The translations under genes and the position numbers were made by a program. Shown piece after piece: positions 19,499 through 49,788 of a DNA stretch of 64,000 bases (position 1 is the stretch's first letter; each line of letters begins with the position of its first letter). The notes under the pieces were generated by a model that saw only the letters and a program-made list of their open reading frames with translations, was not told the DNA's origin and did not search any database. The stretch comes from Alphaproteobacteria bacterium (GTDB lineage: Bacteria; Pseudomonadota; Alphaproteobacteria; Rickettsiales; UBA1997): contig JAGKWR010000002.1 in assembly GCA_021151765.1 (NCBI GenBank), positions 49,918-113,917 on the forward strand, read 5' to 3'.

Positions 19499-20398
19499 TT
19501 ATGATTGAATTACGTTAATCGCATATTTTTTAGACAAATATTTTTCAATTTCTTGACGGTCTGATTTTTTCAAGACGTTATCGAAAACAATAACTTCCAT
19601 AATTTCGCCTTTTAAGCCTTGACCAACTCCATCAATTGCACCAACTGAAATTTTTGCTGTTGGAGAAACCCAAGCACTGCTAGCTACTGTTTTACTTCCT
19701 GTAGAACCATTCATATCAGCCACTCCATTAATATAGCTGAAAACTTCTGGATTAGCCACCAATTGTCCATCAACTGAACTTGGATCAATTGTTAAGCAAA
19801 TGATGCTAGCACTTCCTGCGTTTGCAACAATCTTAGCAGAACCAGTTACAGATCCAGCAACACCGTATACTAACACAACATTTCCATTTTCGTTAATTTG
19901 TACACCAAATCCATCTTGTTCTTGTGTACCGTTATAGAAGATTGTATTTGATTGACTAAGGTCAGTAGTTCTTACAACAAAGAACATAGTGTAAGAGTTA
20001 AAAGCAGAATCAATAACTCTCGTTCCATTAAAATGTCCAGAATCTGTTGAAACACCAGGAAGTGAATTAGTAGAGGTTGAAGCTACATATTTTGGAGAAT
20101 CAGACCCGACAAAGCCATTAGTAATTGAAAGCTGAGGATTTAAATCATTCCAAACTGATAAAACTGATTTATCAGTAGCTTCAGAACTTTTAAAACTACC
20201 TTCCATACTAGTTTCTAACCAAAGGGATAAACCTTTAATACTGTTTACTGGAGAACTTTGAGTCAGAGTTTTAGCAGTAGTGATCTTAGACTGTCTTACA
20301 AGACGACTAGCTTGAGTAACACCGGCAATTAGCACCCCGATAATAAGGATAACAATCGATAGCTCAATCAAAGAAAATGCACTGAGGTTTTTTTTCAT
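19499..20398 (-). CDS. Prepilin-type N-terminal domain protein with a LamG-like jellyroll (Laminin_G_3) domain, 299 aa
   Basis: The N-terminus 'KKNLSAFSLIELSIVILIIGVLIAG' is a class III signal-like pilin helix with E at +5. It is followed by 'LWLETS...SVWNDL...' and a C-terminal '...EIMEVIVFDNVLKKSDRQEIEKYLSKKY', as in pilin-LamG proteins. It is a paralog of ORF 47839-49788. Confidence 0.75.
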   Translation of the reverse strand: MKKNLSAFSLIELSIVILIIGVLIAGVTQASRLVRQSKITTAKTLTQSSPVNSIKGLSLWLETSMEGSFKSSEATDKSVLSVWNDLNPQLSITNGFVGSDSPKYVASTSTNSLPGVSTDSGHFNGTRVIDSAFNSYTMFFVVRTTDLSQSNTIFYNGTQEQDGFGVQINENGNVVLVYGVAGSVTGSAKIVANAGSASIICLTIDPSSVDGQLVANPEVFSYINGVADMNGSTGSKTVASSAWVSPTAKISVGAIDGVGQGLKGEIMEVIVFDNVLKKSDRQEIEKYLSKKYAINVIQS

Positions 20399-47838: not shown

Positions 47839-49788
47839 ATGAAAAAACCAAATATCAAAGCCTTCTCTCTGGTTGAAATCACGATCGTAATTTTAGTGAT
47901 TGGTGTTATTATTGCTGGTGTGTTGGCGAGTAATGTTTTGATTAAGAAGTTTCGTATAGCTACGGCGCAGAATTTGACGCAGTCGTCACCGATTCAAGGT
48001 ATTGCAGATTCGGTGTTGTGGTTGGAAACTAGTTTGGACAAGAGTTTTAAGGCTTCAGAGAGTGAGGATAAGTCGAAGTTGAGTGTGTGGTATGATGTTC
48101 GTGAGTCTATGTCTAAGAATAATGCTGTTCAAAGTGATGCTGCTTATGCTCCGAGTTATTCCAATAGTATTAATTATGTGCAAGCGGTGAAGTTTGATGG
48201 CACGAATGGTTATTTTACGGTGGATGGCTCAGTTTTGAACAATACGAATTACACGATTTTTGTTCTAGAGAGGAGAGAGAGTAACAAGAGCGGTAATTAT
48301 TTTATTGGTGATGCTTCATCTGAGAATCAATCAACTACGAATAAGAATTTAGTTTTAGGTTATAGTGCTGATGGGACGGTGATTCATTCGCAATCTAGTG
48401 ATAATTCTTACAGTTCGAGTATTTCGACTTATGCGTCCTCAACTGGCAAGGCGCGAGTTTTTAGTTTTGTTCATGATAGTTCTGTGGGTAAGAAGACTTA
48501 TATTAACGGACTTCTAGCTGCGACTTCGACTGATACTAATAATTTATCTGGGATGAACACTTTGACGATTGGTAAGTCTTATCAGGGTCAGATTGGCGAG
48601 ATTGTGATGTTTGCTCGTGCTTTGACTGATGAAGAGAGAGAATCGGTTGAAGATTATTTGGGTAAGAAATGGAACAGCACAATTTTACGTTCTATTGGTG
48701 GATCTGCTTCATCTGGCGGTATTGGTGGAAGTTGTGTTGGCGGAACTGTCAGCGATTCGGGATGTTTGATTTCTTGTACAGTAACTGCTGCTAATGGGAT
48801 CACAGCTACCACAGTTCAAGACGGATCTGGATCTTTAACTTGTAACGCTGCAGCAAATTTCACTGGTTCTTTGCCTTACTCCTGTGTCAACGGTGTCTTC
48901 CAATATACAGACAAAACAAGCTGCTCCTGCGCAACTGGTTATAATCTAACGGGCTCGACTTGTACACCAATTAACCCAAGTTGTTCAGGTGGCACCGAAT
49001 CTACCACAACTATTTCAGGAATTACTTACAAACTGCATACTTTTACATCTTCTGGAAATCTTGTTTGTACAGCTGGTGGCCGTAGTCAGGTATTAGTTGT
49101 AGCTGGTGGCGGCGGCGGTACATTTTTTGGTGGTGGTGGTGGCGGCGGCGGTGTCGTATTTAAGTCTAGCCATACTCTTACAGTCAAAACTTATAGTGTT
49201 ACAGTTGGTAGTGGTGGTATTGCTAATACTTCAGCTACAACCACTCCAGTTAATGGTGGCAACTCAGTTTTTGATACTATTACCACTTATGGTGGTGGTG
49301 GCGGTGGAAATAACTCTCTAGCAGCTGGAAAAGCTGGTGGCTCTGGTGGCGGAGCAAACAGGGGAGATGTTCCGAGCAGAGTTGGTGGTGCAGTTATTAC
49401 AAATATCGCAGACGGAGGAATTTCTTACGGAAACGTTGGCGGTGCCACAGCAAATATTACAGGTTGGGGTGGTGCTGGTGGAGGTGGAGGAGCTGGATCA
49501 GCAGGTGGTCAAGGAGGTTCTAACGGCACAGCAGCTGGAGAGGTTGGTGGTAGTGGTGGTAATGGCGTATCAATAAGTATAACAGGAACACCAACTTATT
49601 ATGCCGGTGGCGGTGGTGGTGCTGTTCAGGGAAACTTAACCCCATCACCTGGTGGTTTAGGTGGAGGTGGAGCTGGAGGTCGAAATCCAGTCGCCGGAAC
49701 AGATGGTTATGGTGGTGGTGGTGGTGGCTCAACTAACATACCTAAGAGAGGTGGTTCTGGTGTCGTAATTATTCGTTACGCTAAATAA
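47839..49788 (+). CDS. Prepilin-type N-terminal domain + LamG-like jellyroll + EGF-like Cys module + long Gly-rich C-terminal domain (649 aa)
   Basis: The N-terminus 'KKPNIKAFSLVEITIVILVIGVIIAGV' is pilin-like. The LamG_3 pattern runs 'LWLETS...VWYDV...VKFDGTNGYF...TIGKSYQGQIGEIVMFARALTDEERESVEDYLGKKWN'. An EGF-like 'CSCATGYNLTGSTCTP' follows. After that come 235 aa dominated by GGGGG runs and ending 'GSGVVIIRYAK'. Confidence 0.75.
   Translation: MKKPNIKAFSLVEITIVILVIGVIIAGVLASNVLIKKFRIATAQNLTQSSPIQGIADSVLWLETSLDKSFKASESEDKSKLSVWYDVRESMSKNNAVQSDAAYAPSYSNSINYVQAVKFDGTNGYFTVDGSVLNNTNYTIFVLERRESNKSGNYFIGDASSENQSTTNKNLVLGYSADGTVIHSQSSDNSYSSSISTYASSTGKARVFSFVHDSSVGKKTYINGLLAATSTDTNNLSGMNTLTIGKSYQGQIGEIVMFARALTDEERESVEDYLGKKWNSTILRSIGGSASSGGIGGSCVGGTVSDSGCLISCTVTAANGITATTVQDGSGSLTCNAAANFTGSLPYSCVNGVFQYTDKTSCSCATGYNLTGSTCTPINPSCSGGTESTTTISGITYKLHTFTSSGNLVCTAGGRSQVLVVAGGGGGTFFGGGGGGGGVVFKSSHTLTVKTYSVTVGSGGIANTSATTTPVNGGNSVFDTITTYGGGGGGNNSLAAGKAGGSGGGANRGDVPSRVGGAVITNIADGGISYGNVGGATANITGWGGAGGGGGAGSAGGQGGSNGTAAGEVGGSGGNGVSISITGTPTYYAGGGGGAVQGNLTPSPGGLGGGGAGGRNPVAGTDGYGGGGGGSTNIPKRGGSGVVIIRYAK

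Follow-up and report, generated by a model that had tools for sequence, protein, structure and literature searches.

A type IV pilin-like protein with a lectin-like domain, a Cys-rich spacer and a glycine-lattice domain from a Rickettsiales-like bacterium

Gene and domain plan

The gene at 47839-49788 encodes a type IV pilin-like protein, in which a pilin-type N-terminus is followed by a lectin-like domain, a small Cys-rich spacer and a glycine-lattice domain. The gene family to which it belongs is large, has not been described before and occurs in uncultured freshwater Rickettsiales-like bacteria, where its role is probably surface recognition. It is slightly more probable than not that the full plan is that of a modular type IV pilin-like protein, in which a class III signal and the alpha-1 helix carry a ConA/LamG-like sandwich, a disulfide-rich spacer and a distal TNF-like sandwich with a glycine-strand lattice. 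The features are as follows, with positions counted in the window, that is, the whole stretch of 64,000 nucleotides that was analysed:

47839-49788, + strand: ORF of 649 aa with an ATG start
47839-47862, + strand: class III (prepilin-type) leader MKKPNIKA with Ala at -1, immediately before 47863 (read from the sequence)
47863-47982, + strand: predicted mature N-terminus FSLVE..., with Glu at +5, hydrophobic alpha-1N and a long alpha-1 helix (aa 9-48)
48010-48669, + strand: ConA-like/LamG-type beta-sandwich (aa 58-277; Foldseek, AF2 model)
48733-48984, + strand: Cys-rich spacer of small beta-hairpins (aa 299-382) with 9 Cys; a tenth Cys lies at aa 410
48985-49785, + strand: C-terminal domain (aa 383-649, Pfam Gly_rich_2) in which a beta-sandwich is combined with a glycine lattice; its last strand, GGSGVVIIRY, is conserved
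49360-49368, + strand: RGD tripeptide (aa 508-510) within a hypervariable loop (aa 506-525)
19499-20398, - strand: short paralog of 299 aa with only the prepilin signal and the LamG-like domain (BLASTP, HMM)

The ORF and all the sequence strings quoted in the initial annotation were found in place. The 299-aa paralog named there also exists and aligns to residues 3-285 of the 649-aa protein (BLASTP, 34% identity over 285 aa, E 2e-29). When the single 649-aa protein was used as a phmmer query against PDB sequences, only noise was returned. Among homologs, 64 sequences were scanned with Pfam and 97 were aligned.

Pilin-type N-terminus

In the class III signal of type IV pilins, the leader is short and charged, -1 is a near-invariant Gly, +1 is Phe (or Met), +5 is Glu, and about 20 hydrophobic residues follow. 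In the 649-aa protein the N-terminal sequence reads MKKPNIKA followed by FSLVEITIVILVIGVIIAGVLAS, so that all of the class III features are there except Gly at -1, which is replaced by Ala. This replacement is a property of the family: among the 77 homologs with an intact site, Ala occupies -1 in 71 (~92%) and Gly in 6, and the residue pairs at the cleavage site are Ala-Phe (69), Ala-Leu or Ala-Ile (2) and Gly-Phe (6). Mutagenesis work on Pseudomonas PilD reportedly indicated that Ala at -1 is partly tolerated. Since this position is Ala rather than the near-invariant Gly, the leader is treated here as putatively cleaved.

The AF2 model contains the long alpha-1 helix that marks type IV pilins, at residues 11-48 with pLDDT ~89-97; a classical pilin head domain cannot be made out in the model between this helix and the LamG sandwich. 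The HMM scores of the 649-aa protein are below cutoff for both N_methyl PF07963 (18.8 bits, cutoff 21.2) and TIGR02532 (12.7 bits, cutoff 16.3); N_methyl in the 299-aa paralog reaches 22.0 bits, over the cutoff, and PF07963 is matched by 46 of the 64 scanned homologs at E<=0.01. Weak matches (E 0.007-0.9) also link the family profile to the N-terminal helix of pilins of known structure, namely geopilin, PilA, MshA and PAK pilin. That is to say, the prepilin N-terminus proposed in the initial annotation is supported by the pilin-type class III signal and the long alpha-1 helix, with a PF07963 score under its cutoff.

LamG/ConA-like sandwich and Cys-rich spacer

The sandwich behind the helix is the most conserved part of the family, and the closest homologs are 75-81% identical. 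In the AF2 model about 14 strands at aa 58-258 form a two-sheet jelly roll. Foldseek against the PDB relates it to ConA-like jelly rolls (probability 1.0, E 1e-6 to 1e-7), namely BoNT/TeNT Hc-N, NTNH, AbnA domain 4 and the lectin domain of trans-sialidase. A LamG_3 domain had been assigned to the protein at the outset, and a PF13385 search had been proposed as the check: the ConA/LamG-like fold is borne out by the model, but PF13385 gives no match in the 649-aa protein at E<=1. The same profile is matched by 3 of the 64 homologs (best E 1e-10) and by further relatives, and in the 299-aa paralog it scores 20.2 bits, under the cutoff of 27.6.

The string that had suggested an EGF-like Cys module, CSCATGYNLTGSTCTPINPSC, is indeed present at aa 362-382 (nt 48922-48984) within the Cys-rich spacer, but the EGF-family HMM match of the protein (cEGF) stays under its cutoff.

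Glycine-lattice C-terminal domain

Residues 413-649 (237 aa) contain 36% Gly, arranged in 12 Gly-rich blocks with short non-Gly segments between them; the ~235-aa poly-glycine domain described earlier is thus strongly Gly-rich, but not made "almost entirely" of GGGGG. Gly_rich_2 (PF21722) matches with 56.9 bits against a curated cutoff of 24.3, over profile positions 16-225 of 226, and is found in all 64 homologs scanned. Because PF21722 is above its cutoff and 64 of 64 homologs match, the region, as judged from its sequence, exceeds compositional chance.

The modelling proposed in the initial annotation gave a folded C-terminus with pLDDT ~92, and on this AF2 model the Gly-rich C-terminus is a folded domain rather than disorder. 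The region has the make-up of a phage fibre tip, that is, a TNF-like sandwich, stacked extended Gly-rich motifs and a terminal beta-strand, and likewise shows the TNF-like plus PGII-lattice fold of ALK/LTK type. Structural alignment to solved glycine-lattice domains suggests an extended (PGII-type) backbone geometry.

That the tail might be a compositionally biased, unstructured region without a defined fold would fit its 36% glycine, the DSSP assignment of most residues to neither helix nor strand, and its removal by the BLAST low-complexity filter; the PF21722 score and the pLDDT of the model speak against it, and this reading has next to no probability. Masking also bears on the search for relatives: phage relatives of the domain are found in PHROGs and BFVD, and tblastn of the domain against 50,697 phage genomes returned no match, probably because of low-complexity masking. 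No published mention of PF21722 or Gly_rich_2 was found in a literature search, and a pilin carrying a polyglycine or glycine-rich domain is described in none of the 12 top-ranked publications on pilins and such domains.

RGD and the eukaryote-like reading

The RGD lies in the Gly-rich domain as had been claimed, but its coordinates, given earlier as 49358-49366, are off by 2 nt (49360-49368). It occurs in 4 of the 97 aligned homologs, in columns that are variable, gap-rich and part of the most variable loop of the family, and it lacks the conservation of an integrin-binding motif; shuffling within domains gives P ~0.06 for at least one RGD, which is within chance. The initial annotation had combined RGD, EGF-like module and ALK/LTK-type glycine-rich domain into a eukaryote-mimicking adhesive tip touching a eukaryotic host. 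The kinship to ALK/LTK-type "Gly_rich" holds at the level of the TNF-like/PGII-lattice fold, but PF12810 has no match in the 649-aa protein at E<=1 or in any of the 64 homologs at E<=0.01. With this missing match, an EGF match below threshold and a rare, variable RGD within chance, the eukaryote-like tip is very improbable.

Family and genomic setting

The gene is not unique: the same architecture occurs in >1000 database proteins, and a single MAG carries up to 17-18 family copies. The paralogs share the scaffold and differ in the spacers and tip loops. The flanking genes at 47839-49788 are an alaS N-terminal piece, rnpB, lysS, a radical-SAM enzyme and ankyrin proteins. Around ~100 family members in 78 loci the neighbours are housekeeping genes, with partial synteny in which alaS-N and lysS recur, and no recurrent pilus genes were found beside these members.

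Domains like the C-terminal one are typical of phage fibre tips, and the N-terminal part weakly matches phrog_10356 (virion structural protein, E 1e-8) and phrog_4390 (E 4e-9), which would suit a phage-derived tail-fibre or tailocin component left in a prophage remnant. However, the genes on either side serve housekeeping or host interaction, several MAGs show partial synteny at the locus, and the protein bears a prepilin signal, which phage fibres do not have. Phage structural, integrase and lysis genes are all absent from the surroundings, and because there are no phage genes nearby, the prophage origin is rejected as highly improbable.

Pilus machinery and the membrane-anchor alternative

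A search for assembly genes had been suggested together with the pilin assignment. Pfam analysis of 29 ORFs in the 64-kb window revealed no pilus genes, those for a prepilin peptidase and a platform protein included; a PilB-type ATPase and a secretin are encoded in related MAGs. The PilB-type assembly ATPase of the lineage is highly conserved, being at least 78% identical across >120 clusters; among the best 120 PilB matches, none is on the source contig of the 649-aa gene. A motif search by regex, covering 1.18 Mb of related loci, turned up a single PilB-type ATPase; PilD, PilC and a secretin were not detected by it. When E. coli Gsp and HofC proteins served as phmmer queries, the related loci yielded the same ATPases together with one secretin, and no GspO or GspF homolog. 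Nor did a classical small major pilin stand out in the loci sampled.

The points against the pilin reading are the Ala at -1, the pilin HMM scores under cutoff together with the missing LamG_3 match in the 649-aa protein, the head domain not evident behind the helix, the pilus genes not found in the 64-kb window, and the pilD and pilC genes not found in ~1.2 Mb of related loci. Several of them would suit a protein whose pilin-like N-terminus is a mere membrane anchor or export signal, so that it would be a bitopic inner-membrane, periplasmic or T2SS-like-released surface protein that never enters a filament: Ala at -1 in ~92% of the members, pilin-model scores below threshold, pilus genes beside none of the ~100 members in 78 loci and no small major pilin noticed. 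Against this, the class III signature (leader, F+1, E+5 and hydrophobic helix) is strictly conserved family-wide, and Glu+5 of type IV pilins is needed for filament assembly, not for membrane anchoring. The lineage also keeps the conserved PilB-type ATPase and a secretin, and the disulfide-rich and phage receptor-binding-type modules suggest an extracellular role. Such an anchor, with LamG and glycine-lattice domains that would bind envelope or periplasmic ligands, is considered unlikely.

Proposed mode of action

The best reading, which is held with somewhat more belief than doubt, is that of a modular minor pilin showing a diversifying, phage-receptor-binding-like tip. In this minor pilin, a prepilin peptidase would cut off the 8-residue leader, and docking into a pilus or pseudopilus would be brought about by the alpha-1 helix. 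Given the bulk of its C-terminal modules, the 649-aa protein may be a low-abundance subunit at the tip, where the LamG domain and the variable glycine-lattice loops could bind to glycan or protein ligands on the surface of a host, a prey cell or a particle. Many paralogs per genome with differing spacers and tip loops would then supply a repertoire of binding specificities.

Comparison with known systems

A close precedent is offered by the modular pilins of Streptococcus sanguinis, as far as they are described in the excerpts of two studies (PMC9934059, PMC8179133): PilC joins a pilin part to an Ig-like and a ConA-like lectin module, PilB joins a pilin part to vWA, both are proposed pilus-tip adhesins, and a PF13385-containing architecture is among the 15 commonest modular-pilin architectures listed. 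The protein analysed here resembles PilC and PilB in using the class III signal and alpha-1 as the carrier of bulky C-terminal modules, and PilC in having a lectin-type module of the ConA/LamG superfamily. Unlike those pilins, it has three modules, two of which are the Cys-rich spacer and a glycine-lattice domain of phage type; the latter does not appear among the modules named in these excerpts. It also has Ala at -1 and a LamG sandwich directly after the helix. The host lineage is diderm alphaproteobacterial whereas S. sanguinis is monoderm, and the present family, known from sequence and models, reaches 17-18 copies per genome against one in S. sanguinis.

PF21722 is a domain without assigned function, whose members in bacteria and viruses are named "glycine-rich domain-containing protein", and tailed phages place the PF21722-type domain at tail-fibre tips for host recognition. 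By the curated cutoff the 649-aa protein is a member of PF21722, as are the 64 scanned homologs, and phage tail-fibre tips with glycine lattices include cyanophage Pam3 gp24 (7YPX), mycobacteriophage Bxb1 gp33 and gp29 (9D93) and Salmonella phage S16 gp38 (6F45). The extracellular glycine-rich domain of ALK/LTK (7LIR, 7LS0, 7LRZ, 7NX3; PF12810) has the same TNF-like plus PGII-lattice fold, but without a PF12810 sequence match here and with just 16-19% identity.

In the cytokine receptor ALK the EGF-like module comes after the glycine-rich domain; here the Cys-rich module precedes it. In the comparison with ALK/LTK no sign of transfer to or from eukaryotes was seen. As for strategy, an analogy is provided by the chimeric fibre adhesins of Bdellovibrio bacteriovorus, which in the excerpted description (PMC10769870) are likewise a multi-copy, phage-fibre-like surface repertoire with which a cell-associated bacterium recognises its targets; they are set apart by that same description, being trimeric fibres, whereas a pilin scaffold is used here.

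Significance

Modular pilins show how simple filaments gain functions, and few have been characterised so far. On the reading given above, the present family would extend the known range of a rare glycine-lattice fold shared with ALK/LTK receptors and phage fibres. As a tentative suggestion, possible rather than probable, a probably host-associated lineage from a poorly known group has taken the domain with which phage tail-fibre tips bind receptors, put it on pilin carriers and expanded it to up to 17-18 genes, or ~30 kb per MAG, as a diversifying repertoire. If true, a new module would be added to the known modular-pilin repertoire, and phage host recognition and bacterial adhesion would be linked through a shared domain. 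The lineage-wide Ala at -1 would then point to a prepilin peptidase of altered specificity. The family would also represent a new class of adhesins at the pilus tip, recognising their targets as phages recognise hosts, and would provide concrete candidate genes for host or prey recognition in organisms not yet culturable.

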